From contig CATLBQ010000001.1 in the NCBI GenBank assembly GCA_949879765.1, positions 95,742 to 159,741 of the forward strand: a DNA stretch of 64,000 bases, written 5' to 3'. A program made the translations under genes and the position numbers. The notes under the pieces are model-generated. The model was not told where the DNA came from. It worked only from the letters and a program-made list of their open reading frames with translations, and did no database searches. How positions within the stretch are numbered: position 1 is the first letter of the stretch; the number at the start of each line of letters is the position of its first letter. This DNA comes from an uncultured Bacilli bacterium. Lineage in GTDB: Bacteria > Bacillota_I > Bacilli_A > ML615J-28 > CAG-313. Shown in pieces: positions 11,860-46,405 of this stretch.

Positions 11860-11898
11860 TAACAAGATTACAAAAAAATCATGAGAGGAGATGCAAAA

Positions 11899-14800
11899 AT
11901 GAAAATTTTTAGAAAGACGTTAATCATATGCGGATTGTTTTGTGCACTATTTATTATAGGGTGTGCAAAACCTGCAGATTCTTTAGAAAATTCTAAAAAT
12001 CCAAATCATAATGGTACATCTGATTCATTCAAATTAGATGTTAGTCAAGTTACTGCTGACTTAAAAGCAGATTTTATTGATTCGCTCAATAAAGATTTGG
12101 TAAAGGAAATCGCAGACTTAAAAAAAGATGAAGAAGTAGGGGTGATCATTACATTATCAGATCAATCACTTGTTTCAGATTATCTTTTATCAAGTGCTGA
12201 AAATTTTGAAGCATATTCAAAAACAAAAGCATATAAAGTATTGCAAAGAACTTTATTCAGTAAACAAAAACAATTGATTGAATTACTAGAACAAAAACGA
12301 CTAGTTAAAGAAGTAAAATATCAATACGAAACAATATTAGATGGTATCTATGTTCGAACAAAGGCAAGTAATGTTCAAGCCATTACCCAATTGCCTGGGG
12401 TAGAAAGAGTGATGGTGTCTAATACGTATGATAAACCTGATGCGGTAACCAATCCAGTTCAAGTTTATGATACGGGTATTTTTGATAGTAGCGATGTAAA
12501 ATATACTGGAAAAGGTACAATTGTTGCGGTTTTAGATACAGGATGTGACTATACACATACGGCTTTTACAACACATGAAGTTATCGATCCATTGTATTCA
12601 AGAGATGACATTGAAGGGATGCTAGATGGGCTTTTTGCTAATCGCTATACCGCAGATTTAGAAACTCGTGATGTATATTATTCTAGCAAGATTCCTTATG
12701 GATACGATTATGCCGATAAGGATCCAGATATTATGCCATACGAAAGTGAACATGGTACACACGTTGCTGGTATTATTGGTGGATATGATGATACCATTTG
12801 TGGTGTTGCAATTGATACTCAATTGGCAATCATGAAAGTATTCTCAGACTACAAGCAAGGTGCTGAAGATGGAGATATCTTAGCGGCTTTAGAGGACTCT
12901 GTAAAATTAGGTGTAGATGCTATCAACATGAGTTTAGGTACTTCTTGTGGATTTACACGTGAAGAAGATGAGGCATATAAGAGTGAGATTTATGACAATA
13001 TTGAAAAAGCTGGAATTAGTTTAGTTGTTGCTGCATCAAATGACCATAGCAGTGCGTATGGTTCTGAGCAAGGAAATACCAATAAGGCTTCTAATCCAGA
13101 CTCTGCTACAGTAGGTTCACCATCTACTTATCATGCGGCATTATCTGTTGCTTCTATTAACGGAAATATGGATAAGTATATGCTTGCTAATGGTAATCAA
13201 ACTGTCTTTTTCTTAGAATCATTTAATCAATCTGCTAAAGAATATAATTTTTATGAAATGTTAGGTATTCCAAACAATCAATCTGTTGTTTATGATTACG
13301 TAACTGTTCCTGGATTTGGACTTAGTGCAAATTATACAGGTTTAGATATTCAGGGAAAAATTGCCCTTGTAAAGCGTGGAGATATTTCTTTTGAAGAAAA
13401 AGTTCAATATGCGTATGAAGCAGGTGCGATTGCATGTATCGTATATAACAATGTATTTGGTGATATTGTTATGACAGTAGGTAATAACTTACAAATCCCA
13501 ACTGTATCAATTTCTAAAGATGATGGAGTAAAATTGGCTTCAGTACCAAGCGGAAAAATTGAATTCAATATGAATAATATTGCTGGACCATTTATGTCTG
13601 ACTTCTCTAGTTGGGGACCTACACCAAATCTTGAATTAAAACCTGAAATCACGGCGCATGGTGGAAATATTTTATCGGCGATTCCTGGTGGAGGATATGA
13701 TAAATTAAGTGGAACCTCTATGGCTTGTCCAAATATGTGTGGTGTTGCGGTATTGGTTCGTCAATATGTAAAAGAAAAATTCCCTGGCCTTTCGACTACA
13801 GAGATTAGAGATATGGTTAACCAATTGGTGACTTCAACGGCAACAATTGCGTTAGACCGCTTAGGCAATCCATATTCACCTAGAAAACAAGGAGCTGGAC
13901 TTGCTAGTTTGTTCAATGCCGTAAATACCAAAGCATATTTGACGGTTGATGGCAAAAATGTGGCGAAAGCAGAACTTGGTGATGATCCAAAACGTACTGG
14001 TGTATATGAGTTTGAATTCAATTTAATCAATATGTCCGATCAAGCATTACGCTATGACTTATCTTCTGTTGTAATGACCGAAACCCTTTCATCTTCTGAC
14101 GAAGAATATGTAGCAGAACTAGGTTATATTTTAGATGGAAAGACAAGTTATGCTGTAAGCAATGGGACTTTAAATGGAACTGTTTGCGAAGTGGCTGCTG
14201 GTGCGACTTCTGTTGTAAAAGTAAAAATTACCCTCTCTGATGCTGATAAAAATTATTTGAACCGTTATTTCAAAAACGGTATGTATGTAGAAGGATTTAT
14301 AAAATTAAAATCATTATCAAATGATGTTGATTTAAATATTCCTTATCTTGCTTTTTATGGAGACTGGTCTGAAGCACCAATATTCGATTTAGACTATTAT
14401 ACTGTTGAAACAGAGTCTCATAATAATGCAATTGATGATGAAGATAAAATTAAAGCTGACTATTATGCAACTAAGCCACTTGGTAAATATTATTATGACT
14501 ATATTATCCCTCTAGGTAGTTATGTATACACGATGGATGAATCCTTATATAATCCAATTCCTGCAACGATGGAACATGCAGCAGTATCCTATTTTACAGA
14601 CTGCATTAGTGGAATATATGGTGTATTTACGGGTCTTTTAAGAGGTGCAAAAGAATTAAGTATTGAAATTAAAAATGAACTAACAGGAGAAGTAATTTGG
14701 GAAAATACCGAATACAATTGTTATAAATCGCACTACAGTGGTGCACCTAGACCATATTATTGCGATATTGATCTTGAAGCAGGAGATCTTGCGCTAGACA

Positions 14801-17800
14801 ATAATGCGAAATATGTGGTAACGATGAAAGCTAAACTCGACTGGAATAGTACAGAAAACAATCTAAATGATAGTTATAGTTTTTCTTTCTACGTTGATTA
14901 TGAAACACCTCGTGTGTTAGGTGCCAATTACCGAAAGGTATATGATAAGTCTGAAGAACGGTATCATTATTTTGTTGATTTAGAAGTTTATGATAACCAC
15001 TATGTCCAATCTATTCGCCCTGTTGTACTATATACCAATGAGGCGACTGGCAAATTGACGTATACGTCTTTAACTGATAATCCAATTCCGGTATATCAAA
15101 AGAATCGTGGTGAAAAAACCATTGTTGAAGTTGAAATTACAGATTACATGGATATCATCAAAGAAACCAATTTATCGGAAGGTCTTGCTTTCCATATCGA
15201 TGACTATGCGATGAATTCGAATATCTACTATATTTCTTTACCAGAATTAGATAGCAAAAATTTGGCTTTTACTGAAGATACATTAGAAGTGAGTGTAAAT
15301 GATACATTTGATTTAAGACAATTGATGAAGGTAAATGGTCAAGAAGGCATCAATACAGATTACTTAGGTAACTTAAGTTGGACTTCTACAAATCCTTCAG
15401 TAGTAAAAGTGTCTGGTGGTCAAATTGAGGCGCTTCAAGAAGGAAAAGCAACCATTCTTTGTGAAAGTTTAGTCACACATAAACGAATTTCAATTGTAAT
15501 CAATGTTGCAGCGAAGAATGACAATGATAATCCGTTATCTGGAGCCAATGTAGGTCTAGAAGATTTAAAATTTGTTTCTTACAATACATTATTTGCTTTT
15601 GAAAGTGATAACGACCACAGTGAGATTGGTTTAACTGGGTCTATTAATTTCTTTGATACGAAACCAAGCATTTCTTGCTATCCTAGTGAGAGTGTGAAAT
15701 TAAATTATGTGTTAAAACCATGGAATTTAAATGAAGATCGTTATACATTATCTTATAGTTCATCCAATGAAAAAGTAGTTCAAGTCGATAAAAACGGTGT
15801 GGTGACTGCTGTAGGTGAAGGTAAAGCTAGAATTAGCCTTCGTATCACCATTGATGGAAAAACCTCTACATTAGTAGCTCGTTGTGAAGTTACGGTAAAG
15901 AGTCCATTCATTGTAGAAAATCGTACACTTACAGAATATAAAGGTCTTGGTGGGGATGTTGTCATTCCTGATGACCTTGGAATTATGTATATTGGTTCTT
16001 TTGCATTCTGTCATTATAAGGTAGACAATAAAATAGAACCAGAAGATCCAGATGATTTTGATTCAAAAAAGATTCCTTTTGGAAATGATACGATTACATC
16101 AGTTGTCATTCCTGAAGGTGTTGAAGAAATTCAAAAATATGCATTCTATCAATGTACAGCATTAAGAAGAGTGAATCTTCCTACAAGTTGTACCAAAATA
16201 TATGAATATGCATTTTATAATGATACAGCATTACAACAAATCAATCTTGAAAATGTAGTTGTTATTGCAGCAAGAACATTTTATAATTGTGAAAGTTTAT
16301 TAGAAACAGATACAGCAAAAGCCAATACAATTGGTGAAGAAGCTTTTGCAAAATGTAAAAATATTCGTTCTGCTGATTTAAGAGAACTAAAAAGAAGTGG
16401 TAAAAATGCCTTTTTAGATTGTATCCGTTTATCTACAGTATTACTTGGAAAATGGACAAAATTGAGTGAAGGTATCTTTACGAATACAAGATTAACTGAG
16501 GTTACTGTATATAGCACATATGTACCTGATCAAGCATTTAAAGGCTGTGAAAGATTAACCAAAATTTCTTTTGAAAACGAATTGACTTATTTAGGAGATG
16601 CTGTTTTTGAAGGATGTCTTCGTCTTGAAAATATTGAATTCAAAAAAGGCGTTGAATATATGGGAACCGATTTGGTTAATGGTTGTAATGCGTTAAAGAC
16701 ATTAACTCTTCCATCATCAGAAGTAGAAATTGCTGATTATGCCTTCCAAAATAGTGGTATCGAAACGGTTGTTTTTGCTAAAGATACTTACATTGTATCT
16801 GCTGGTGGTAGTTTATTCAAATCTTGTGATCGTTTACAACAAATTGATGCTAGTGCATCTCAATATTATGCATATAAAGATGGCGCATTATATACTCAAG
16901 ATTTAAAGACCTTGATGTTGATTCATCCAAATACATTACTTTCTATTTACAATGTACCTGATTCTGTTGAATATATTGCACCATCTGCAGTATCTTGTAA
17001 TGAAAGTTTAACTGCTATTTATTTTAGTAACTCTTCTCAAATAAAAGAAATCGGAGCCAATGCTTTTGCGGAATGTCCAAATTTACAAATGGTAACTTTA
17101 CCAAACCATGATGTAACGATTGGGAATCACGCATTCTTCTATTGTCCAAAATTAGAAACTGTTAATGTCAATTTTGTAACTGCTATAGGAGATTATGCAT
17201 TCTCTTATACCAATGTAAGAAATATTACGATTGCTGAGGGAGCAACGCTTGGTGAAGGTGCCTTCTATCAAACAAGCAATTTATATGAACTTGTTCTTGG
17301 GGCTAATGTTCAAATTGGATTTGGTTCTTTCTCAAAGAGTGGGATTGTGAACGTTCAAATGCCAGAAGCTGGTGGTGTAGTCATTGGCGATCAAGCATTT
17401 GCTCTAAACCAATCATTGATGAGCATTGATTTAACCAAAGCTACTGGTAAAATTGGTGATGCTGCATTCTATAATTGTTCTAAATTAACTAGTATTGCTT
17501 TTGATCAAATTGAAGAAATTGGGGATCGAGCATTTGCAGATTGTACACGCCTTGAATCAGTAGAACTAGGTACAACATTGACAAAAATTGGTGAAAGTGC
17601 CTTTGCGCAATATGCAACAGGTTCAACATCTGGGGCTGCGTTTACATCGTTAGTCCTTCCAGATAGTTTAGTATACATTGGAGCAGATGCGTTCCATGGC
17701 TGTCGTTTGTTAGAAAGTATTGATTTAAATCAAGTTACAACAATTGGTGAACAAGCTTTTGCACATTGTGTGCAATTGGCTAGTGTTACACTAGGCGAGG

Positions 17801-19338
17801 GACTAAAGCATTTATCTGATAGTATTTTCTATGGTTGTAGTCAACTTGTAAGTATTAATTTAGAAAATGTAGAGACCATTGCTCGTGCGGTTTTCTATTC
17901 CACAAGCCTTGAACAAATCAATTTGGCTAAGGTTACACGCGTCGATGATTCTGCTTTCCTAAATTGTGGAAACTTAATGGAAGTTTATGCCCCATGTCTT
18001 CAATATATTGGTCAAATGGCCTTCCAATCCACAGGTCTTACGCAAATTGATTTACCAGCATTAGAAGAAGTCAAAGCACAAGCCTTTTACCAAACAAAAA
18101 TTGCAGAGTTTGGTATATCTGAAAATTTAACTTCTGTTGAGTATACTGCCTTTATGGGTATGGATGATTTAACTCATTTTTATGCATATGGTGATCCATA
18201 TAAACAAGATACGATTGCATTTAGTAATGTGATTTTAGATCAAGGGGTATTGTATACAATTTTACCTGATGGTAGTTATCAACTTGTTCAATATCCAGTT
18301 GCTAAAACTGATGAAACATACACGGTGTTAGATGGTACTACTCGATTAGATTATTTCAGCGCTGCTTATAATGAATATATTCAAAGGGTTGTATTCCCAA
18401 CTAGTTTAAAAGCAATTGCCAATGGGGCGTTCTATGGTTGTAGTCAACTTAACGAAGTAGAATTCAATTCTTATTATGCACCACAATTAGAAGGAACAAT
18501 GACTTTGGCATCTCAAGTCAAACCTACTCCAGAAACATATGAAGCATTTGATATTTTATATGGTCATGATTATTATTATTTTGCGGGAGCAGGATTGCAA
18601 TACTACTATGCTATGGTTTATCAAAACTTCATTGATACTGTTGGTAAAAAGTATCAGCCAATGACATACATTTATCCTGAAAATAGTAGTGGATATGATT
18701 CCATTTTGTACACAGTTTATTTTAAAGATAAAGTAGATGAAGAAGGAAATCGTATTACAACTGGCTTCACAATGGATAATTTTGCTATCAATTTTAATGA
18801 AGCGATAAAATTGTTACCAGACACTGTTACTTTTAAAGATGAGACGGTGATTCGAAATGCTAGAACAGCATATAATGCTTTATTGATGCACGAAGAACAA
18901 CTTTCCTTTATTTCACAAGAAGATGTAGCAAAATTAATTGAAAAAGAAACAGCTCTAAATGTTTTATTGATGAACCGTACACTTGAACGAATTTATGTTG
19001 TAGAAAACTCAAAATATTCATACGACCAAATCAAAGCAGCGTATCTTCAATTCTCTAAATTAACAAAAGAAGAAGTTGATTTACTAGAAAATGCTTCTCA
19101 ATTAGATGAAGCTATTGCTAAACTTGAAGCTGCGATGAAGCAAAAAGTTGACTTTAACAAAGAATACAACGAGTATGAACCAGTAAAAGAACTACCAGAA
19201 CCTACCCCAACTCCTGAACCTGAGCCTAAAAATAATACCGCAATTATAGTGGTATCCATTCTTGGTGGTATTTTAGTGATTGCAGGTGGCGTGGTTTTAG
19301 TACTGTATTTGCTCAAAAAGAAAGGAAATAAGAAATGA
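11899..19338 (+). CDS. Giant cell-surface subtilisin-like serine protease (S8) with PA domain insert, Big_2 Ig-like domains, long BspA-type leucine-rich repeat array, Pro/Thr/Glu linker and C-terminal TM anchor; N-terminal lipoprotein signal
   Basis: Start at the ATG at 11899 with an AGAGGAG RBS. The lipobox is FIIGC. The catalytic triad motifs are VLDTGCDYTHTAF (Asp), HGTHVAGIIGG (His) and GTSMACPNM (Ser). The PA-like insert reads GKIALVKRGDISFEEKVQYAYEAGAIACIVYN. A Big_2 domain is seen at NPSVVKVSGGQIEALQEGKATI. Dozens of LRR_5-like repeats have the pattern IGxxAFxxCxxLxxI. The C-terminus reads EPTPTPEPEP, then a TM helix (IIVVSILGGILVIAGGVVLVLYLL), then KKKGNKK. Confidence 0.85.
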   Translation: MKIFRKTLIICGLFCALFIIGCAKPADSLENSKNPNHNGTSDSFKLDVSQVTADLKADFIDSLNKDLVKEIADLKKDEEVGVIITLSDQSLVSDYLLSSAENFEAYSKTKAYKVLQRTLFSKQKQLIELLEQKRLVKEVKYQYETILDGIYVRTKASNVQAITQLPGVERVMVSNTYDKPDAVTNPVQVYDTGIFDSSDVKYTGKGTIVAVLDTGCDYTHTAFTTHEVIDPLYSRDDIEGMLDGLFANRYTADLETRDVYYSSKIPYGYDYADKDPDIMPYESEHGTHVAGIIGGYDDTICGVAIDTQLAIMKVFSDYKQGAEDGDILAALEDSVKLGVDAINMSLGTSCGFTREEDEAYKSEIYDNIEKAGISLVVAASNDHSSAYGSEQGNTNKASNPDSATVGSPSTYHAALSVASINGNMDKYMLANGNQTVFFLESFNQSAKEYNFYEMLGIPNNQSVVYDYVTVPGFGLSANYTGLDIQGKIALVKRGDISFEEKVQYAYEAGAIACIVYNNVFGDIVMTVGNNLQIPTVSISKDDGVKLASVPSGKIEFNMNNIAGPFMSDFSSWGPTPNLELKPEITAHGGNILSAIPGGGYDKLSGTSMACPNMCGVAVLVRQYVKEKFPGLSTTEIRDMVNQLVTSTATIALDRLGNPYSPRKQGAGLASLFNAVNTKAYLTVDGKNVAKAELGDDPKRTGVYEFEFNLINMSDQALRYDLSSVVMTETLSSSDEEYVAELGYILDGKTSYAVSNGTLNGTVCEVAAGATSVVKVKITLSDADKNYLNRYFKNGMYVEGFIKLKSLSNDVDLNIPYLAFYGDWSEAPIFDLDYYTVETESHNNAIDDEDKIKADYYATKPLGKYYYDYIIPLGSYVYTMDESLYNPIPATMEHAAVSYFTDCISGIYGVFTGLLRGAKELSIEIKNELTGEVIWENTEYNCYKSHYSGAPRPYYCDIDLEAGDLALDNNAKYVVTMKAKLDWNSTENNLNDSYSFSFYVDYETPRVLGANYRKVYDKSEERYHYFVDLEVYDNHYVQSIRPVVLYTNEATGKLTYTSLTDNPIPVYQKNRGEKTIVEVEITDYMDIIKETNLSEGLAFHIDDYAMNSNIYYISLPELDSKNLAFTEDTLEVSVNDTFDLRQLMKVNGQEGINTDYLGNLSWTSTNPSVVKVSGGQIEALQEGKATILCESLVTHKRISIVINVAAKNDNDNPLSGANVGLEDLKFVSYNTLFAFESDNDHSEIGLTGSINFFDTKPSISCYPSESVKLNYVLKPWNLNEDRYTLSYSSSNEKVVQVDKNGVVTAVGEGKARISLRITIDGKTSTLVARCEVTVKSPFIVENRTLTEYKGLGGDVVIPDDLGIMYIGSFAFCHYKVDNKIEPEDPDDFDSKKIPFGNDTITSVVIPEGVEEIQKYAFYQCTALRRVNLPTSCTKIYEYAFYNDTALQQINLENVVVIAARTFYNCESLLETDTAKANTIGEEAFAKCKNIRSADLRELKRSGKNAFLDCIRLSTVLLGKWTKLSEGIFTNTRLTEVTVYSTYVPDQAFKGCERLTKISFENELTYLGDAVFEGCLRLENIEFKKGVEYMGTDLVNGCNALKTLTLPSSEVEIADYAFQNSGIETVVFAKDTYIVSAGGSLFKSCDRLQQIDASASQYYAYKDGALYTQDLKTLMLIHPNTLLSIYNVPDSVEYIAPSAVSCNESLTAIYFSNSSQIKEIGANAFAECPNLQMVTLPNHDVTIGNHAFFYCPKLETVNVNFVTAIGDYAFSYTNVRNITIAEGATLGEGAFYQTSNLYELVLGANVQIGFGSFSKSGIVNVQMPEAGGVVIGDQAFALNQSLMSIDLTKATGKIGDAAFYNCSKLTSIAFDQIEEIGDRAFADCTRLESVELGTTLTKIGESAFAQYATGSTSGAAFTSLVLPDSLVYIGADAFHGCRLLESIDLNQVTTIGEQAFAHCVQLASVTLGEGLKHLSDSIFYGCSQLVSINLENVETIARAVFYSTSLEQINLAKVTRVDDSAFLNCGNLMEVYAPCLQYIGQMAFQSTGLTQIDLPALEEVKAQAFYQTKIAEFGISENLTSVEYTAFMGMDDLTHFYAYGDPYKQDTIAFSNVILDQGVLYTILPDGSYQLVQYPVAKTDETYTVLDGTTRLDYFSAAYNEYIQRVVFPTSLKAIANGAFYGCSQLNEVEFNSYYAPQLEGTMTLASQVKPTPETYEAFDILYGHDYYYFAGAGLQYYYAMVYQNFIDTVGKKYQPMTYIYPENSSGYDSILYTVYFKDKVDEEGNRITTGFTMDNFAINFNEAIKLLPDTVTFKDETVIRNARTAYNALLMHEEQLSFISQEDVAKLIEKETALNVLLMNRTLERIYVVENSKYSYDQIKAAYLQFSKLTKEEVDLLENASQLDEAIAKLEAAMKQKVDFNKEYNEYEPVKELPEPTPTPEPEPKNNTAIIVVSILGGILVIAGGVVLVLYLLKKKGNKK

Positions 19339-29636: not shown

Positions 29637-31577
29637 ATGGCGAAAGTAGCTAATGTCTACAATGAAGATTCGATTCAGGTATTGCAAGGGCTAGAAGCCG
29701 TTCGCAAACGACCTGGTATGTATATTGGATCAACCGATGCAAGAGGATTGCATCATTTGGTATGGGAAATTGTCGACAATGCGATTGATGAGGCACTATC
29801 TGGATATGGTTCACAAATTATTGTAAATATTCATAAGGATAATAGCGTAGAAGTTATCGATAATGGTCGAGGAATTCCTACTGGTATACACAAAGTTGAA
29901 AAACGCCCTACTCCTGAGGTTATTTTCAATACTTTACATGCGGGGGGAAAGTTTGATGCAGAGGGGGGATACAAAGTATCTGGAGGTCTTCATGGTGTAG
30001 GTTCATCTGTTGTCAATGCACTAAGTGAATGGCTAACTGTAACAATACATCGTGATGGAAAAATCTATAATCAAACCTATCGCAATGGTGGAAAAATAAT
30101 CGATAAACCAAGAAATTTGGGAGAAACCAAAAGAACAGGTTCAGCCATTCATTTCAAACCTGATCCAAAGATTTTTTCATCGACTATTTTTGAATATAAG
30201 ACGATAGCACAACGGTTAAAAGAATCAGCTTATTTGATCAAAGGATTAAGAATTGATTTAAATGACTTAAGAACCAATAAAAGTGATAGCTTTCATTATG
30301 AAAATGGAATTGTCGAATTTATCAAAAGCTTATGTGCTGGAAAAGACGCGCTATATGATCCGGTTTTTCTAAGTGGCAATCTATCCAAAATTAATATCGA
30401 AGTTGCCTTGATGTATTGTGAAAAAACATATAATGAAAATATTTTATCGTTTGTCAATAATATTCGTACAAGAGATGGTGGTACACATGAAGTCGGCTTT
30501 AAATCAGCTATTACTAGAGCATTTAATGATCATGCACGATTAATTGGGGCATTAAAGGATAAGGATTTGAATTTGGATGGTGCAGATATTCGAGAAGGAC
30601 TAACAGCCATTATTTCAATTCGAGTACCTGAAGATTTATTGCAATTTGAAGGACAAACCAAAAATAAATTGGGCACGCCTGAGGCCAAACCTGCTGTTGA
30701 GCAAGTTGTATATGATCAAGTGAAATCATATCTTGCGGAAAACGGTCAGATTTCTTCCAATTTGATAGGTAAAGCCATTCGTGCTTCTAAAGCAAGAGAA
30801 GCAGCAAAAAAAGCACGTGATGAAATTCGAATGGTTAAACAAAAGACTTCTAAACCAGCGAATTTGATTGGAAAATTAACACCAGCACAATACAAGAATC
30901 CAAATAAAAACGAATTATTTTTAGTAGAAGGTGATTCAGCTGGAGGTACAGCAAAGCAAGGTAGAGATCGAACATTTCAAGCGATTTTGCCACTACGCGG
31001 TAAAGTTATCAATACAGCAAAAGCCAAACTAGAAGAAGTACTGAAAAATGAAGAAATTATGTCCATTATTAATGCTATAGGTGGTGGATTTGGTAGAGAA
31101 TTTGATGTGTCTAAATCCAACTACAGCAAAGTCATCATCATGACCGATGCGGACACCGATGGTGCACATATTCAAATTTTGTTGTTAACTTTCTTTTATC
31201 GATATATGAAACCTTTGGTAGAAAATGGAATGGTGTATATTGCTACACCTCCACTATATAAAATTACGTATAAAAATGTGGTAGAATATGCTTGGACAGA
31301 TGAAGAATTACGTGAAAAAATTCAAAAGAAGAATGTTCAAATTCAGCGCTATAAAGGATTAGGAGAAATGAATGATCAACAGTTGTGGGAAACGACTATG
31401 GATCCTGAAAGAAGAACCTTAATTCAAGTCTTGATAGGTGAAGAAGGGGCTGCAGAAAATAAGATGAATATTTTGATGGGTGATGACGTAGAACCAAGAA
31501 GAGAATGGATCGAAAATAATGTTGTATTTGATGCGGATGATAACTTTGTGTTAGAGGATGTGAATGAAGATGAGTAG
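29637..31577 (+). CDS. parE: Type IIA topoisomerase ATPase subunit; called topoisomerase IV subunit B (ParE) from context
   Basis: GHKL ATPase and TOPRIM motifs are present ([37 protein letters not shown]). The start is at 29637 with an AGGGAG RBS. It sits beside plsY and away from an origin-type dnaA/gyrB context, as Bacillus parE-parC does. Confidence 0.65.
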
Positions 31578-34035: not shown

Positions 34036-34104
34036 AAATTATTTATCATTATAAGGCAAATAAAAAACGAAATATGGTATAATGTGTCAAGTGAGGTGAA
34101 GAAC

Positions 34105-36150
34105 ATGTTTAAAATTGCCATTGATGGACCCGCTGGATCAGGAAAATCTACTATCTCAAAAATAATTGCGAAAGAATTGAATTTTGAATATATCGATACG
34201 GGAGCAATGTATCGCGCAATTACGTTAAAGGCGATTCGTTTAGGAATTGATATGGAAAACCCTGAGGCTTATGGGTTCTTAGCAAATACTGAATTAGATG
34301 TTTGCAATGGACGTTTTATTATGGATGGTGAAGATGTAAGCGATGCAATTCGCAGCGTCGAAGTTACCAATCAAGTTTCTACACCTTCTAAAATAGAAGT
34401 AGTCAGAGATTATCTTGTTGATTATCAACGTAAAATCAGCAATGCAAAGAATTGTATCATGGATGGTCGTGATATTGGAACAGTTGTATTAAAAGACGCC
34501 TCACTGAAAATCTATTTGGATGCGCGAGTTGAATGCCGCGCAAGAAGAAGAATGATGGAGCGTGCTGAAAAGGGAATACATTTGACCCTTGAACAGACCA
34601 TCCAAGAGATTGAACTTCGTGATTGGAAAGATTCCACACGTAAGTATAGCCCTCTTCGTTGTGCAGAGGATGCTATAGTCATTGATAGTACCGATTTATC
34701 AATTGATGAAGTAGTTAGTCGGATTATAAATTTAGTGATTGAGAGGAAAAACAAAATGAGTAAAGGTACTTACACTGAGGGACAAAACGTTAGAGGATGC
34801 ATTATCAATGTGACCAAGGATGCAATCTATTTAATTTTAGGGGAAGATGAGAAAGGCGTTATCTACAGCAACGATTTAAAAGATTATACAGAAGGTCAAA
34901 AACTTTACAATCTATATCATGAGGGTGAAGAATTTGAAGCAAGCGTAAAAACTGTAGGTAAGGATCGCAAAACTGGCGAACCACTTTATATTTTATCTAC
35001 CAAACTAGAAGATGAAAAAGCAAAATTAAGCATTTTTGAAGAAATCAAAGAAAAGGATGAAATCATCAAAGCAAAAGTAACCCGCATTACTGCAGTTGGT
35101 GCAGATATGGATTACAAAGGATTTAAATTATTCTTACCAGCAAAATTCATTGATTTGAAAGAAGATGCATTGAAAACGTTAAAGGGTCAAGTATTAGATG
35201 TAATGGTTATTTATGTCAATAAGGATCGTTTCCAAGTGACTGTATCTAACGTAATGGCTATGAAAAAGCAATATCGTCTTGCTAAGGAAGCAGCATATGC
35301 GGCAATTTCAGAAGGAATGGAAATAACTGGAGAAGTTGTCAATGTACTTCCATATGGTGCAATCATTAACCTCGGTGAAGTGAGTGGTTTATTACACCAA
35401 TCAGAAATTGATCATAAGCCTATTAGAAATGTTGCCAATCGTCTAAAAGTAGGCGATAAAGTAAATGTAAAAGTAATCGGAATCAATGGAAATAAGATTT
35501 CTTTATCTATGAAAGCTCTTGTTCCACACCCATGGGATGTTTTAAAAGAACAATATCATGTAGGTGATGTGTTTGAAGGAACAGTACAAAAAATTATTCC
35601 TGCAGGTGTATTGATTACGTTAACATCTGAATATGCTGGACTAATGCCAAGAGGTGAATATTCTTGGTTCAGTAATGTGAAAATTGAAGATAATGTCCAA
35701 GAGGGTTCAACATTAAAAGTACAAGTGATGAATATCGATGATGAGAAAAAACGGGTAAGTTTATCTCATAAAGTGACTTTGGAAAATACTTGGGTAGATA
35801 TCAAACTACGTAGAGGCGAAAAAATTTCAGTTGTATTAGCAAGTACAACTGAACATGGAGCACTTGTCAATTACAAGAATGTTCAAGGTTTCTTACCAAT
35901 CAATGAAGTCACTAGTTTAAAGCGTATTTCAAAAGTTGATGAAGTATTCCCTATCGGTAGTACGATTGAAGTAATGGTTCAAGAATGTGATCCATCTGTT
36001 GCTAAATTGCGCGTTAGTGCAAAAGCAGTTGAGGTGGCCAAAGAAAGGGCTACTTTTGACAAATATATCGAACAACAAGACAAAGAAACACCAACTAGTA
36101 CAATCGGTGATTTACTTGGTGATCTTCGTTTTGATAAGGACGAAGACTAA
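34105..36150 (+). CDS. cmk-rpsA: In-frame fusion of cytidylate kinase (Cmk, N-terminal ~217 aa) and a ribosomal protein S1 homolog (C-terminal ~465 aa, four S1 domains)
   Basis: Start at the ATG at 34105 (GAGGTG RBS). The Cmk P-loop is IAIDGPAGSGKSTISK and the lid region is also present. There is no stop before MSKGTYTEGQ at 34756. S1 repeats follow (for example GEVVNVLPYGAIINLG and GTVQKIIPAGVLITL). An internal AGAGGA RBS lies 9 nt before the ATG at 34756. Confidence 0.8.
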   Translation: MFKIAIDGPAGSGKSTISKIIAKELNFEYIDTGAMYRAITLKAIRLGIDMENPEAYGFLANTELDVCNGRFIMDGEDVSDAIRSVEVTNQVSTPSKIEVVRDYLVDYQRKISNAKNCIMDGRDIGTVVLKDASLKIYLDARVECRARRRMMERAEKGIHLTLEQTIQEIELRDWKDSTRKYSPLRCAEDAIVIDSTDLSIDEVVSRIINLVIERKNKMSKGTYTEGQNVRGCIINVTKDAIYLILGEDEKGVIYSNDLKDYTEGQKLYNLYHEGEEFEASVKTVGKDRKTGEPLYILSTKLEDEKAKLSIFEEIKEKDEIIKAKVTRITAVGADMDYKGFKLFLPAKFIDLKEDALKTLKGQVLDVMVIYVNKDRFQVTVSNVMAMKKQYRLAKEAAYAAISEGMEITGEVVNVLPYGAIINLGEVSGLLHQSEIDHKPIRNVANRLKVGDKVNVKVIGINGNKISLSMKALVPHPWDVLKEQYHVGDVFEGTVQKIIPAGVLITLTSEYAGLMPRGEYSWFSNVKIEDNVQEGSTLKVQVMNIDDEKKRVSLSHKVTLENTWVDIKLRRGEKISVVLASTTEHGALVNYKNVQGFLPINEVTSLKRISKVDEVFPIGSTIEVMVQECDPSVAKLRVSAKAVEVAKERATFDKYIEQQDKETPTSTIGDLLGDLRFDKDED

Positions 36151-36155
36151 TCTGT

Positions 36156-37484
36156 ATGAAACGTGGCACTGTAGCAATTATCGGGCGTCCGAATGTGGGA
36201 AAATCCAGTTTGTTTAATCGACTTTCCGGAGAAAAATTGGCCATTACAGATGATGTCAGTGGGATTACCAGAGACCGTTTATATACGCAATGTGAATGGT
36301 TGGATCAAGAGTTTTCTTTGATTGATACAGGAGGGATTGAACTCAAGCAAGTTCCTTTTATGGAAGAGATCAAAGCACAAGCAGAACTTGCCATTGATGA
36401 GGCTGATTTGATTCTTTTGGTCACTGATGGTAGAGTGGGAATCACAAATGGTGATGAAGATGTAATGCGTATATTACATAGAAGCAAGAAACCGGTAATT
36501 GTTGCGGCAAACAAAATAGACGATGTAAAATTCATGGATAATATCTATGAATTTTATAATTTAGGCGCAGAAGAAGTATTTGCTGTAAGTGCATTACATG
36601 GGATTGGCATTGGCGATATGCTCGATTGCATCGTCCGCCTTTTACCAGAAAAGAAAATAAAAAAATATGAAGACACCATTGAATTTTGTATTATTGGTCA
36701 ACCCAATGTAGGAAAGAGCTCATTAACGAATGCTATACTTGGAACAGAACGCGTTATTGTTAGTGACATTGCGGGTACGACACGTGATGCAATCGATTCA
36801 AAATTCACCAAAGATGGGAAAGATTATGTTGTTATCGATACAGCAGGTATTAGAAAACAAGGAAAAATATATGAAAATGCAGAAAAATATAGCGTATTGA
36901 GAGCATTAAAAGCCATAGAACGTTCAAGTATAGTTCTATTTGTACTAGATGGAACAAAGGATATTGAAGAACAAGACAAGCGAATTGCGGGTTATGCTTC
37001 TGAATATAATAAAGGGGTTATCATTGTTGTCAATAAATGGGATGCAGTTGAAAAAGATGAAAAGTCTATGAAGGCATATACTGAAAAAATCAGAAGTCAT
37101 TTCTTATTTTTGAGTTATGCACCCATTGTATTTGTTTCTGCACTTAAAAATCAACGTATTCATACCTTGTTTGAACAAATTGGTATAGTGTATGAGAATT
37201 ACAATAGAAGAATTGCGACCAATGTAATGAATGACATTCTATTAGATGCCTCTATTATGAATCAGGCACCAATATTCAATGGTGATCGTATTCGAATTTA
37301 TTATGGTTCACAAGTAGAAATCACACCACCAACAATAGTACTATTTGTAAATGATCCAAGCTATATGCACTTTTCATATCAACGTTATATTGAAAATCGT
37401 TTACGAGAGGCTTTTCTACTAGAAGGAACACCGATTAAAATTATATTAAGGAAGAAGGAAAATGAATGGAAAAGATTTCAGTGA
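36156..37484 (+). CDS. der: Ribosome biogenesis GTPase Der (EngA), tandem GTPase domains plus KH-like domain
   Basis: G1 motifs are GRPNVGKSSLFN and GQPNVGKSSLTN, with DTGG and DTAG. Confidence 0.9.
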   Translation: MKRGTVAIIGRPNVGKSSLFNRLSGEKLAITDDVSGITRDRLYTQCEWLDQEFSLIDTGGIELKQVPFMEEIKAQAELAIDEADLILLVTDGRVGITNGDEDVMRILHRSKKPVIVAANKIDDVKFMDNIYEFYNLGAEEVFAVSALHGIGIGDMLDCIVRLLPEKKIKKYEDTIEFCIIGQPNVGKSSLTNAILGTERVIVSDIAGTTRDAIDSKFTKDGKDYVVIDTAGIRKQGKIYENAEKYSVLRALKAIERSSIVLFVLDGTKDIEEQDKRIAGYASEYNKGVIIVVNKWDAVEKDEKSMKAYTEKIRSHFLFLSYAPIVFVSALKNQRIHTLFEQIGIVYENYNRRIATNVMNDILLDASIMNQAPIFNGDRIRIYYGSQVEITPPTIVLFVNDPSYMHFSYQRYIENRLREAFLLEGTPIKIILRKKENEWKRFQ

Positions 37485-42137: not shown

Positions 42138-42328
42138 TGAATGGAAAAACACTTATTCAACGAATAAGTGTTTTTGTTTTCTTTATAAATATAAGGAAAA
42201 GATGAGTTTACCTTCCCTTAAAAGATGAAAAAGTGGTAGATCTCACTAATTGAATAATGAAAATACTTGCAAAAGAAAAAAAGTAATGATATAATAAAAA
42301 ACGTATTATTATGAAGGGAAATACAAAT

Positions 42329-45300
42329 ATGACGAAAATGAGAAAAAGATTATTTGTAGCAGTAGCTACATTTGGTATTTTATTGATTTTGTCTGCTTGT
42401 ACGACACTAGGTGAAATCAAAGTTTCACTAAATGCAACGTATGAAGTAACAGAAGGGCAGACTATTGAAATAGCACCACTTGTCACAAAAGATGGAGCCG
42501 AATATCAAACTGCTTTGGGATATGTGTCTTTGGATACTTCCATAGCAAAATTTGTAGATGGAAAATTGACAGGCGTAAAACCTGGTCAAGTGCGTATAAA
42601 AGTATATGCGGTAGAACAACCTAAAGCCTATGCTACAGCCTTAGTAACTGTAACAAACAACAATCTACTATCTGCAACATTTGATATTGAACAAGAAATG
42701 AATGTAAATGAAACACAACAAATACATTATCAAATCACAGGAACAGAGTTAGAACCTCTTGTAAATTATCGCTCTTTAAATGAAGAAATTTTGACTGTGG
42801 ATGAAAATGGTAACCTAGTTGCAAAGTCTGAAGGTAGTGCTACTATTATTATCCGTTTGACATCTGCGAATGATCCTAGTATTTACCGTGAATATAAATA
42901 TGAAATCAAAATAACATATTATACATACTCTATAGAGTATGTGTTAAATGGGGGAAAGAATCACAAAGATAACCCAACAGGTATTCATTTGAATCAATTA
43001 CCGATAACGCTTGGTAATCCAACTAAAGCTGGATATAATTTTGTAGGTTGGTATGATAATGCTGAATTTGATAATCAATCAATTACTGTAATTGAACAAA
43101 TGGAAAATGAGCATATTCAATTGTTTGCTAAGTGGGAAAAAGTAGACTACACCATTGAATATAATTTAAATGGTGGTACCAATCATATAGATAATCCACT
43201 TGTTTACAATATTGAAACGGATACAATTACACTTTTACCTGCCACAAAAGCATATTATGTATTTGACGGATGGTATATTGGGAACATTAAGGTAGAGACT
43301 ATTCAAAAGGGTACCATAGGTAATCAAATTTTAACTGCGAAATATACACCCGTTGAATATACCATTACGTATTACTTAGATGGTGGTATGACAACCAACC
43401 GAAATGCTTATACAGTAGAGACTGAAACCATAGTTTTATCGGACGCAGTAAAAGATAATTACAATTTCCTAGGATGGTTTGACTCTACTGGTCAACAAAT
43501 TACAGAAATTGTAACTGGTACTACTGGCAATCTTGAACTTACTGCACGATATGTAGCAATTGATTATACTATTGATTATGTATTGAATGGTGGTGTAAAT
43601 CAGGAAAATAATCCAACAAAATATAATATAGAAAGCAATGATATCCTTCTTTTAGTCCCTACCAAGAATGGTTATATCTTCTTAGGATGGTTTAATGAAA
43701 AGAATGAAGAAGTTACAACCATCAAGAATGGCTCAACTGGTAATGTAACTTTACTAGCAAAATGGGAAGCTGACACTTATACAGTAACATTCGATAGTAA
43801 TGGAGGTTCAACTATAGATTCAGTTGAGTATACCATTGAATCAGAAGATATTACATTAGCTAAACCAACCAAGACGGGTTATACCTTCTTAGGATGGTTT
43901 AATGAAAAGAATGAAGAAGTTACAACCATCAAGAATGGATCAACTGGTGATTTAGCACTTACCGCTAAATGGGAAATTGTAGCATATGAAGTGGCTTTAG
44001 ATGCTGATGGTGGTGCAGATGTTGAAAATATTCAATTTACAGTAGAATCATCTTTAATTGAATTGCCATCAACAGCCAAACAGGGCTATACATTCCTTGG
44101 TTGGTTTGATGAAGCGGATCAACAGGTTAAAGCAATTGAAACGGGTACAGTAGGCAATCTTAAATTAAAAGCCAAATATCAAGTGAAGACCTATACGATT
44201 CAATATGAAGGTTTAAATGCTGGAGATAGTGCAAACAATCCTACAAAATATACCATTGAATCGAGTACAATCGTACTTCAAAATCCAATTTTAGTTAGTG
44301 GTTATATTTTTGAAGGTTGGTATAACGAAGATGACGAAGCAATTTATGAAATTAAGAGTGAAACACTTAGTGATCTTGTCATAAAAGCAAAATTAAGAGA
44401 ATATACCATTCAAGAAGTAAAGCAAACAACAAATGAAGTAGCAGTGTTTACAGGTACAATTACGGCTATTTCTGTATTGAGTAATCAATATAATAATTAC
44501 TCTATTTTAGTAAATGATGGTACTGCATCCATTATGGTTTATCGTCTTTCTAACAAAACATATGCGTACGAACAATTTGCACTGGGTCAAAAAATTAGAG
44601 TGAAAGGTCAAAATGTACCATTCAATGGACTAAATGAGATTGCAACCATTGATTCTATTGAGATTGTAGAAGAAGGTACACCACTTCAACCAATAGAATT
44701 AGAGGCTATTCCTTCAGAAGAAGAATTGCTTGCAATGCAATGCGGAATAGTAAAAATGACCCTTACATTTGTATCTGGTACTTTAGGTGCAAAACAAAAT
44801 GCAATTTTTAAAGATGCAAACGGTAAGCAGATGACAGTTCGAGGTGATAGTGACTGGGGTGTTATTGATAGTATAACATTACGTACTGGAAGAGAATACA
44901 CTATTATTGGATTTGTATCTTGGTTTAATGGACCACAAATCAGCAATGTATCTAATTATCCATTTGTTGAAGCAGTGATGACTGATGAGATGATAGCTAT
45001 GGATTATTTAGATCAAATTAAAGTAGAAAGTACAGCCACTGAAGACTTTTCATTACCATCTGTAGAAGGCGTGACTTGGACAATGAAAGAAACTAGTGCT
45101 GCAGAACTTGTAGATGGTACTGTCAATATTATTCGTGGTGAGGCTGATGTAGTGATTACACTTGTTGCCACATATACTTTGAATGGAAAAGGATACAATA
45201 AAGAATTTGATGTCATTGTTAAAAAGAAATCTTCTGGTAGTGAAGAATGGGCTTTAGTCACAAATGAATCTGAATTAAACGTAGGCGATACCATTGTTAT

Positions 45301-46405
45301 TGTGGCAAATGGTTACGATGTCGCTCTAAGTACAACGCAAAATCCAAATAATCGTGGCGAAACTGCTATTGTTAGATCTGGGAATACGATTACAATTGAT
45401 GATAATGTTCAAATTCTTACATTAGTGGGTGGAACAAAAGATGGGACATTTGGTTTTGATACAGGTAGTGGATATTTGTATGCGGCTGGTGGAACAGGTA
45501 AAAATAATTATTTAAAAGTTGAAAATAGTTTATCTGATAATTCTAGTTGGAAGATTACAATTGATGAAACTGGTGTTGCAAAAGTAATTGCCCAAGGAGA
45601 TGCAATTCGAAATGTAATACAATATAATTATACTAGTAAATTATTTTCTTGTTATGCTAGTGGTCAAAAAGATATTTCAATTTATAAACTAACTGAATCA
45701 ACTCCTTTGACCGATGAACAAATTGCCCAAAAATATTTGAACAATTTATCAGTAGTAACTGAAACCAATACTGATGTAGAGTTAACACAAGATGATAATT
45801 TGTCATGGCAATTGAATACAACTACTGATGTTGCAGAAATAGTAGAGGGTGTTTTACTTGTAACTCCAGGAGCTGCTGATGTAACAATTACGCTAGTTGC
45901 AATATATACTTTAAATGGAAAATCTTATGATAGAGAGTTTGAAATAGTAGTTAAGAAAAAGGATGAAGTTGGAACTAAGACTGAGAAAACTTATACATAT
46001 CAGTTTGTATCAGGTGCTTTAAAAACTACAGGCGGAACTGCAACATTGGGAGAAATCGATTGGACATATGGCTCAATTACATATGCAGGAATTGATACCA
46101 CAGCGGCAAAAAGAGGTTTCCAAATTGGAAGCGGTAGCAAACCAACTATGTCTTTTGTATTATCAACTAATAGTATAAAAGTAAACATAAAATCAGTAGT
46201 AATTAATGCATCCATTGCTAGTGGCGGAACTGCTAAATTGTCGGTTTCTATTGGTGGGGTGAATTATTTAGACGCACAAGCGTTGACTACTACATCAACC
46301 GATTATACTATTACACCAAATGCTTCAGGTGATATTGCAATTTCATTTGCGAATACTGCAAAGGCATTTTATATCAAATCAATTACAATTGTTTATGAAG
46401 AGTAG
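42329..46405 (+). CDS. Large surface lipoprotein (paralog of the previous gene): Big_2 domains, about nine tandem Listeria-Bacteroides repeats, the same shared module of about 300 aa, additional beta-rich domains
   Basis: Lipobox LSAC. Repeated GWYD/GWFN...LxAKW units every 66 aa or so. The shared module reads REYTIQEVKQTTNEVAVFTGTITAI...VPFNGLNEIA. The start is the ATG at 42329, with the same upstream gaagggaaat as the paralog. Confidence 0.7.
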   Translation: MTKMRKRLFVAVATFGILLILSACTTLGEIKVSLNATYEVTEGQTIEIAPLVTKDGAEYQTALGYVSLDTSIAKFVDGKLTGVKPGQVRIKVYAVEQPKAYATALVTVTNNNLLSATFDIEQEMNVNETQQIHYQITGTELEPLVNYRSLNEEILTVDENGNLVAKSEGSATIIIRLTSANDPSIYREYKYEIKITYYTYSIEYVLNGGKNHKDNPTGIHLNQLPITLGNPTKAGYNFVGWYDNAEFDNQSITVIEQMENEHIQLFAKWEKVDYTIEYNLNGGTNHIDNPLVYNIETDTITLLPATKAYYVFDGWYIGNIKVETIQKGTIGNQILTAKYTPVEYTITYYLDGGMTTNRNAYTVETETIVLSDAVKDNYNFLGWFDSTGQQITEIVTGTTGNLELTARYVAIDYTIDYVLNGGVNQENNPTKYNIESNDILLLVPTKNGYIFLGWFNEKNEEVTTIKNGSTGNVTLLAKWEADTYTVTFDSNGGSTIDSVEYTIESEDITLAKPTKTGYTFLGWFNEKNEEVTTIKNGSTGDLALTAKWEIVAYEVALDADGGADVENIQFTVESSLIELPSTAKQGYTFLGWFDEADQQVKAIETGTVGNLKLKAKYQVKTYTIQYEGLNAGDSANNPTKYTIESSTIVLQNPILVSGYIFEGWYNEDDEAIYEIKSETLSDLVIKAKLREYTIQEVKQTTNEVAVFTGTITAISVLSNQYNNYSILVNDGTASIMVYRLSNKTYAYEQFALGQKIRVKGQNVPFNGLNEIATIDSIEIVEEGTPLQPIELEAIPSEEELLAMQCGIVKMTLTFVSGTLGAKQNAIFKDANGKQMTVRGDSDWGVIDSITLRTGREYTIIGFVSWFNGPQISNVSNYPFVEAVMTDEMIAMDYLDQIKVESTATEDFSLPSVEGVTWTMKETSAAELVDGTVNIIRGEADVVITLVATYTLNGKGYNKEFDVIVKKKSSGSEEWALVTNESELNVGDTIVIVANGYDVALSTTQNPNNRGETAIVRSGNTITIDDNVQILTLVGGTKDGTFGFDTGSGYLYAAGGTGKNNYLKVENSLSDNSSWKITIDETGVAKVIAQGDAIRNVIQYNYTSKLFSCYASGQKDISIYKLTESTPLTDEQIAQKYLNNLSVVTETNTDVELTQDDNLSWQLNTTTDVAEIVEGVLLVTPGAADVTITLVAIYTLNGKSYDREFEIVVKKKDEVGTKTEKTYTYQFVSGALKTTGGTATLGEIDWTYGSITYAGIDTTAAKRGFQIGSGSKPTMSFVLSTNSIKVNIKSVVINASIASGGTAKLSVSIGGVNYLDAQALTTTSTDYTITPNASGDIAISFANTAKAFYIKSITIVYEE
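43679..43750 (+). repeat. Intragenic tandem repeat copy 1 (198-bp period, one Flg_new repeat unit)
   Basis: About 70 nt, ggttatatcttcttaggatggtttaatgaaaagaatgaagaagttacaaccatcaagaatgg..., differing by 2 nt from the copy at 43877. Confidence 0.8.
43877..43948 (+). repeat. Intragenic tandem repeat copy 2
   Basis: Near-identical to 43679-43750. It encodes the duplicated YxFLGWFNEKNEEVTTIKNGSTG. Confidence 0.8.

Follow-up and report, generated by a model that had tools for sequence, protein, structure and literature searches.

The subject of this analysis is an in-frame fusion of cmk, the cytidylate kinase gene, with a downstream rpsA-like gene for a protein of tandem S1 repeats, and in particular the translation start signal that lies inside the fused gene. 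The fusion was found in a stretch of 64,000 nucleotides (nt) of DNA, hereafter the window, from an uncultured Bacilli bacterium (GenBank assembly GCA_949879765.1, contig CATLBQ010000001.1, positions 95,742 to 159,741). All features described below are on the forward (+) strand. The fused open reading frame (ORF) occupies positions 34105–36150 and runs without interruption from an ATG at 34105 to a TAA at 36148–36150 over 681 codons. The window shows the gene order parE-parC-[cmk-S1]-der-gpsA, with der (GTPase EngA; ORF at 36156–37484) beginning 5 nt 3′ of the fusion. An earlier reading of the window by eye (the original prediction) had described an in-frame cmk-rpsA fusion in a cmk-rpsA-der-gpsA gene order. 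Both statements hold: the frame is open over 681 codons, both Pfam domains are present, more than 120 homologue clusters are likewise fused, and the order was observed in the window and in its relatives.

The cytidylate kinase (Cmk) moiety (34105–34755) comprises codons 1–217, including a C-terminal helix. Pfam family PF02224 (Cytidylate_kin; a 211-position model) covers residues 4–211 with E = 3.8e-72, and TIGR00017 (cmk; cut-off 135.55) gives 228.3 bits for the whole protein and 233 bits for the Cmk half, in agreement with the 217-codon kinase and P-loop originally proposed. The P-loop, GPAGSGKST, lies at 34126–34152 (codons 8–16). In 26 fused homologues the motifs GPAGxGKST, DTGAMYR, and DGRDIGT, the residues R145/R148/R149/R153, and the segment R172-D173-x-K-D-S-x-R are all invariant. 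The Cmk half is a complete type 1 cytidylate kinase with the full catalytic set, and (d)CMP kinase activity is predicted.

The S1-repeat moiety (34756–36150) consists of 464 codons and the TAA. Four S1 domains had been counted originally, and a Pfam scan of the whole protein indeed reports S1 in four stretches (E = 4.3e-43); however, an AlphaFold model, run with a 26-sequence alignment (mean predicted local distance difference test (pLDDT) score 80, predicted template modelling score (pTM) 0.37), contains five β-barrels in this half, and PF00575 scans of the separate segments also point to five S1/oligonucleotide-binding (OB) units. These are unit 1 (~34786–34998; 20.1 bits, degenerate and just below the 22-bit cut-off), unit 2 (~35062–35247; 32.8 bits), unit 3 (~35320–35508; 54.3 bits), unit 4 (~35569–35766; 46.5 bits), and unit 5 (~35821–36018; 36.8 bits). 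A conserved helix and tail (…KERxxFDKYxxxQxxExPTSTIGDLLG) complete the C-terminus at 36019–36147. The half scores below the cut-offs of the NCBIfam S1 equivalogs, namely NF004952 (243.8 against 524), NF005208 (241.9 against 368), and TIGR00717 (227.2 against 577). It is a divergent S1-type protein that shares with bS1 (RpsA) the tandem S1 domains and the place between cmk and der. Ribosome binding by the S1 homologues of Gram-positive bacteria with a low G+C content has been questioned, at least in the discussion of one study (PMC2760812).

The start of the fused gene at ATG 34105 is preceded, at a distance of 5 nt, by the Shine-Dalgarno (SD) sequence GAGGTGA (34093–34099), whose duplex with the anti-SD has an energy of −11.7 kcal/mol. 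The longest ORF would begin at GTG 34084, and this start was rejected because the homologues all begin with MFKIAIDG, which corresponds to 34105. Upstream, TGgTATAAT (34075–34083) reads as a candidate extended −10 element, uncalled by the promoter consensus scan and devoid of a good −35 hexamer. Neither a structured RNA, in an Rfam search near the locus, nor a tRNA, within the window, was found.

A second set of initiation signals is located at the junction of the two halves, which reads …ATT GAG AGG AAA AAC AAA ATG AGT…. An SD sequence, GAGAGG (34741–34746), is formed by the same bases as codons E213-R214, and the in-frame ATG at 34756–34758, codon 218 of the fusion ((34756 − 34105)/3 = 217) and encoding Met218, would be the ancestral rpsA start. 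The original prediction had placed AGAGGA 9 nt before this ATG; the site, start, and frame are correct, but AGAGGA occupies 34742–34747 and leaves 8 nt, and the SD duplex itself ends 7 nt short of the ATG. With the generic anti-SD used, the junction duplex has an energy of −9.7 kcal/mol, compared with a median of −9.8 kcal/mol when the best start of each of 31 long ORFs of the window is taken; among 16,027 internal codon positions it falls within the top 0.8%, and among 349 internal in-frame ATGs within the top 0.6%. In the AlphaFold model, residues 218–221 form the sole inter-domain stretch with pLDDT below 50, directly after the Cmk C-terminal helix, and the low pTM indicates independent domains.

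The fusion itself is genuine and old, appears to be selectively maintained, and is typical of a clade of uncultured gut Bacilli. Assemblies from NCBI, JGI, and Logan contain an identical 681-residue protein; of the 12 proteins in its 90% cluster, 11 have exactly this length, and the labels of the metagenome-assembled genomes (MAGs) in the cluster conflict (Anaeroplasma bactoclasticum, Prevotella sp., and Staphylococcus sp.). Without exception, the best 120 homologue clusters, which reach down to 56% identity, are fusions of 676–742 residues with Cytidylate_kin and S1 domains; the proteins are named merely "(d)CMP kinase" at NCBI and come from Bacilli, Erysipelotrichaceae, or "Anaeroplasma" MAGs, and the closest DNA relatives among the matches listed are human-gut metagenomes. 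All 17 fused loci read as DNA are open across linkers that differ in sequence and length. The sequencing error at the junction that the original prediction had considered is therefore excluded, given the independent assemblies and the more than 120 fused clusters.

On a wider scale, scans of GTDB cmk loci and of metagenomes, which are samples and not censuses, showed cmk-S1 adjacency in many of the sampled phyla and a fusion in 3 of 80 sampled cmk loci, namely L001 (Bacilli MAG), L003 (unclassified), and L006 (Spirochaetia), only one of which is a Bacilli relative. An exhaustive search of representatives added at least 35 clusters in which S1 repeats accompany an N-terminal Cmk (684–1002 residues, 28–40% identity), and most of these have a Met a few residues past a K/R/G/E-rich patch. 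The view that such a fusion is atypical for Firmicutes thus stands, with 3/80 sampled loci fused; across bacteria the architecture is far more widespread than in Treponema alone. In a separate observation, the Erysipelotrichaceae/Bacilli MAG loci L014 (Anaerorhabdus), L018, L076, and L079 (Bulleidia) carry cmk but lack any S1-type gene in the 3 kb that follow it, so that the cmk-rpsA linkage has been broken, or S1 lost, in parts of the group.

Codon usage at the junction was compared among 15 fused orthologues with pairwise amino acid identities of 54–81% (median 61%), a divergence at which synonymous sites are scrambled. Met218, Ser219, Glu213, and Arg214 are invariant in 26/26 aligned fusion proteins, with the residues in between varying and with one extra linker residue in most fused lineages. 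A structural role does not explain the invariance of Met218, since it falls in the linker with pLDDT below 50. In the 17/17 fused loci read as DNA the junction codon is ATG. Arg214, located 4–5 codons before this Met, is encoded by AGG in 14 of the 15 orthologues, the remaining one having AGA followed by GG, whereas, within the same sequences, AGG makes up 6/223 codons (2.7%) when 15 other conserved Arg columns are counted (nominal Fisher p = 4e-17), and in the flanking genes 1–12% of Arg codons. Furthermore, the Gly that follows Arg214 in the longer linkers is GGC in 9/10 cases, compared with 37/324 (11%) elsewhere (nominal p = 8e-8). The resulting conserved string, GAGAGG or GAAAGGGG, pairs with the anti-SD at −7.5 to −11.0 kcal/mol over the 15 genes, as strongly as the SD of the cmk start, and ranks 3–22 of ~645 in-frame positions in every one of them, where rank 3 denotes a tie only with neighboring codons sharing the same SD. 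The paired SD block ends 7–10 nt before the ATG across the fused orthologues, within the functional range.

The unfused relatives keep a purine-rich SD over different residues (KKEN in L010, KRS in L002), which indicates that the RNA signal is conserved and not the peptide. Overall, the internal SD and ATG are under selection at the nucleotide level beyond what the protein requires. Two further candidate signals were rejected. A constant aligned SD-ATG spacing over the two linker-length classes was not robust, the register-corrected values being 4–8 nt, and the Ser219 codon (AGY in 14/14, making ATGA) is not distinctive, as other Ser columns likewise stay within one codon family.

Comparison with the loci of relatives, as suggested along with the original prediction, revealed fused, split, and overlapping cmk-rpsA states. 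L093 and L094 have the order parC-S1-der-gpsA without cmk, and their S1 begins at the homologous ATG, preceded by GAACGAAAGGGGTTCAACATC, which is homologous to the fused linker, with the GAAAGGGG leader retained. Moreover, the S1-only clusters P0139 and P0140 (51% identity), recovered in the exhaustive search, begin at the junction Met. Translation of S1 from the junction ATG would evidently be sufficient in the split relatives. L095 is also split and reads …AAT GAA AGG GGC TTA ATG AAA TGA, with a TGA that overlaps the S1 ATG (ATGA); relative to its fused sister L106 (3620–3660), L095 (1–60) lacks 1 nt of TTAAT(T)AAAATG, which may reflect either a genuine fission or an error in a homopolymer, the contig being an old metagenomic one. 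In a neighbor-joining tree of the S1 moiety, L095 pairs with the fused L106 (bootstrap 100) and L093 lies inside a 100%-supported group of fusions, with the unfused L010, L015, and L002 as the outgroup. By comparison of their sequences, the fused and split states appear to be interconvertible through 1-nt changes. As an additional observation, the GAAAGGGG leader of L093 is preceded by a spacer of 135 nt (2405–2540) that contains a TG-extended −10 (ATATGATATAAT), as is also the case in L094.

The layouts of the unfused relatives suggest how the fusion may have arisen. In L015 (Bathyoplasma) the end of cmk reads GTT AGC GAG AGG GGA TTT AAT CAT GGA AGA TTT TAA (LVSERGFNHGRF*), and rpsA starts at an ATG embedded in this end, one nt out of frame; L010 (Acholeplasmataceae MAG) has the same layout (…AAG GAG AAC AAG C-ATG-GA GAT TAA). 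In L002 (AAG AGG AGC TAA ACC ATG) and in the unfused spirochaetes L008 and L009, a single in-frame stop separates the SD from the ATG, and from such a layout a point mutation would be enough for fusion. The C-terminus of L015 Cmk is nearly identical to the fused "LVNERGFK-M", which makes an indel of 1–2 nt in an overlapping pair the simplest route. The ancestor would thus have carried tightly overlapping cmk and rpsA genes, with the rpsA SD contained in the final codons of cmk and the rpsA ATG in a different frame from cmk, and a 1–2-nt indel between SD and ATG would have joined the two frames. The original proposal that two separate genes merged is consistent with this origin, the genes of the closest unfused relatives overlapping or abutting with the SD in the 3′ end of cmk, but the likely event is an indel and not a point mutation of the cmk stop codon.

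In the mechanism proposed here, a complete rpsA initiation region, comprising a GAR-AGG(-GG) SD, a spacer of 7–10 nt, and an ATG, would survive inside the fused ORF, and one mRNA would offer two starts, with ATG 34105 leading to the 681-residue Cmk-S1 protein and ATG 34756 to a free, five-domain S1-type RNA-binding protein of 464 residues, the predicted N-terminus of which is (M)SKGTYTEGQNVR. The amount of S1 could then be set independently of the kinase. We assign a probability of about 0.75 to this reading, that is, that one mRNA yields both proteins and so uncouples the supply of S1 from that of the kinase. The original prediction had also held that both a fusion and a free S1 protein could be produced; the conservation at synonymous sites of the internal ribosome-binding site and start that this idea predicts was observed, and the production of two proteins is what we infer from it.

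Several points weigh against this two-product reading. The case for internal initiation is a comparative one, built on conservation, and starts within an ORF under active translation may be used inefficiently, as elongating ribosomes occlude the site. The anti-SD used throughout was the generic Bacillota 16S tail, the window containing no 16S gene. Reduced mRNA structure, a common hallmark of start sites, is absent from the junction, where the mean percentile over the 15 genes was 0.39, not unusually weak. No σ70 promoter site was detected within cmk by a consensus scan of the + strand over 34105–34756, and promoter-like sites in the whole scanned region were fewer (13) than in shuffles (18.8); visual inspection suggested TTGATG-N16-TATAAA, but this candidate does not satisfy the −10 criterion, and the equivalent positions vary among orthologues. 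The Fisher p-values overstate independence, the 15 orthologues being phylogenetically related, although the complete scrambling of the other Arg columns argues that synonymous sites are saturated despite this kinship. In addition, the direction from fusion to fission for L093 and L095 depends on a neighbor-joining tree with some weak internal nodes.

Two of these points, the lack of a detectable promoter for S1 only within cmk and the unreduced mRNA structure, also fit an alternative in which only the fusion protein is made, and GAGAGG/GAAAGGGG and the ATG are kept for a ribosomal pause at the domain boundary, favoring co-translational folding of Cmk, or for a requirement for Glu-Arg-(Gly)/Met in the protein. 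The SD lies where the C-terminal helix of Cmk ends, at a domain boundary, which suits such a pause; SD-induced pausing is, however, itself disputed. A need for Arg does not explain the use of the rare AGG (14/15 compared with 2.7%), and the Met is invariant and always 7–10 nt past the SD duplex despite its location in a disordered stretch. The unfused relatives L010 and L002 place the SD over other residues, KKEN and KRS, and in L093 the junction site is the sole S1 start. We consider the production of the fusion alone to be unlikely. An assembly indel or base-calling error, by which the cmk stop was removed or the frame shifted between two real genes, is suggested by the A-rich, indel-prone linker (AAAAACAAAATG) and by L095, where precisely this kind of 1-nt indel separates the split locus from its fused sister; the identity of the protein in three assembly collections, the uniform length of 11 of the 12 cluster members, the more than 120 further fused clusters from independent samples and assemblers, and the open frame of all 17 loci over differing linkers leave this explanation with practically no probability.

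A third product might be added to the two proposed, if ribosomes or RNA polymerase slipped on the A-rich linker, which would release Cmk on its own, with coupled re-initiation at the S1 ATG. Both other frames stop at once at the junction (the TGA of the conserved ATGA and the TAA in AGT AAA), the +1-frame TGA overlaps the ATG in 15/15 fused loci, runs of A7–A8 directly precede the ATG in L083, L107, L109, and L112, and L095 shows the +1-frame TGA working as the cmk stop. Against this, the A-runs are unconserved, with GGCTTTAAAACT or GGCTTAATTAAA in many lineages; a stimulatory structure was not found; AT-rich sequence can be expected to contain stops in the other frames; and the ATGA-forming AGY codon is no more conserved than other Ser columns. 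Programmed frameshifting or slippage on the linker was rejected as unsupported by conservation, and a third product of this kind is very improbable.

Under the preferred two-product reading, the tethered form may also have a role. Every fused linker offers 2–5 single-substitution routes to a stop codon (e.g., AAA to TAA), and such a stop would recreate a layout that works elsewhere; the frame nevertheless stays open in a clade with saturated synonymous sites, which suggests that the tethered protein is useful. The L093 and L095 lineages are the only two exceptions in the clade. E. coli Cmk has been reported to influence 5′-end-dependent mRNA decay (PMC8565310). It is conceivable, but rather doubtful, that the tethered Cmk-S1 is itself functional and selected for recycling CMP to CDP beside the mRNA or its decay, or beside the ribosome. 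If this were true, tethering would explain why cmk and rpsA are adjacent almost everywhere, why they have fused independently in several phyla, and why stops in the linker are not fixed, and the internal start would determine how S1 is divided between the tethered and the free form.

With respect to known systems, the closest are the fusions of spirochaetes, of which Treponema pallidum TP0279 is annotated as a bifunctional Cmk/S1 protein. As in the window, an N-terminal Cmk and C-terminal S1 repeats share one ORF derived from the conserved cmk-rpsA neighborhood, and in L006 AGGAG precedes the in-frame junction ATG by ~10 nt (CAGGAGAATGATAAAAAT-ATG). Unlike the window protein, the spirochaete fusions are longer (~780–860 residues), have an S1 of the Gram-negative type and a long acidic linker, and share only 26–37% identity with it. 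The sampled spirochaetes are mixed, L006 being fused and L008 and L009 separate, and the outgroups L010, L015, and L002 are unfused; the window and spirochaete fusions are thus convergent products of separate events.

In Clostridia and Fusobacteria, the IspH(LytB)-S1 fusion (NF000907/PRK00087; Salah et al., 2009, PMC2760812) resembles that of the window in having a housekeeping enzyme N-terminal to a Gram-positive-type S1-repeat protein, but with a different enzyme partner. Indeed, NF000907 is the best NCBIfam match of the S1 half (250.8 bits, covering this half only and far below the 624-bit cut-off). A distant homologue, P0182 (850 residues), appears to have Cmk followed by an IspH/LytB-like N-terminus (…NNGFCHGVLRAV…) and may be a Cmk-IspH(-S1) triple fusion. 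Other fusions of Cmk involve partners that differ from that of the window, namely Cmk-Der (NF007071), PanC-Cmk (NF010004), and AroA-Cmk (NF008816); these models match the Cmk half, with the window protein far below their cut-offs, and illustrate how easily cmk becomes fused to the genes next to it on the chromosome.

Genes with in-frame internal initiation include infB (IF2 alpha/beta), clpB, and cheA. Further products of this kind are a type III secretion C-ring protein (PMC4295842) and Cas11b (PMC11899642). In all five, an SD and an in-frame internal start give rise to a full-length and a C-terminal protein, as predicted for the window; their short product has been demonstrated experimentally, whereas that of the window is deduced from synonymous-site conservation, and their internal start evolved within the gene, whereas that of the window would be the ancestral start of a once separate gene. 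In the E. coli cmk-rpsA operon, promoters of rpsA lie inside cmk (Fricke et al., 1995, as cited in PMC8565310). The gene order is the same and the logic similar, in that signals within cmk partly uncouple S1 expression; however, E. coli has separate genes with embedded promoters, and the window has fused ORFs with an embedded translation-initiation region and no internal promoter detected.

A literature search found no paper on a Firmicutes Cmk-S1 fusion or on its internal start. The Firmicutes fusion is thus undescribed, although the kind of fusion is known, and the comparative evidence for a retained internal start is unusually clear; current understanding is not overturned by the finding. 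In practical terms, the label "(d)CMP kinase" hides the sole S1-type protein of the locus, and surveys of genome content would score the clade as lacking rpsA. The loci also form a series from overlapping genes through fusion, by a frame-merging indel, to fission, by a 1-nt indel, along which the downstream translation signals persist; fusion would be tolerable, the cell still being able to produce the downstream protein by itself. A clade with both free and tethered S1 would provide a handle on the unexplained, near-universal linkage of cmk and rpsA.

The order parE-parC-fusion-der(-gpsA) is kept in six diverse members of the clade (L107–L112), and the der neighbor is recognizable by MMR_HSR1/KH_dom-like Pfam matches in L106–L112. 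In the window, parE and parC overlap by 14 nt (31564–31577) and der and gpsA by 19 nt (37466–37484), consistent with a compact genome rich in overlapping pairs, the arrangement from which the fusion presumably arose. Shortly 3′ of der/gpsA, a gene of the SpoVIF family (PF14069) is present in L108, L109, L111, and L112; sporulation genes are therefore retained in at least part of the clade, a point against an identity as typical wall-less Mollicutes despite the "Anaeroplasma" label of some MAGs. Two very large + strand ORFs were also observed elsewhere in the window, at 11881–19338 (2485 residues) and 42311–46405 (1364 residues).

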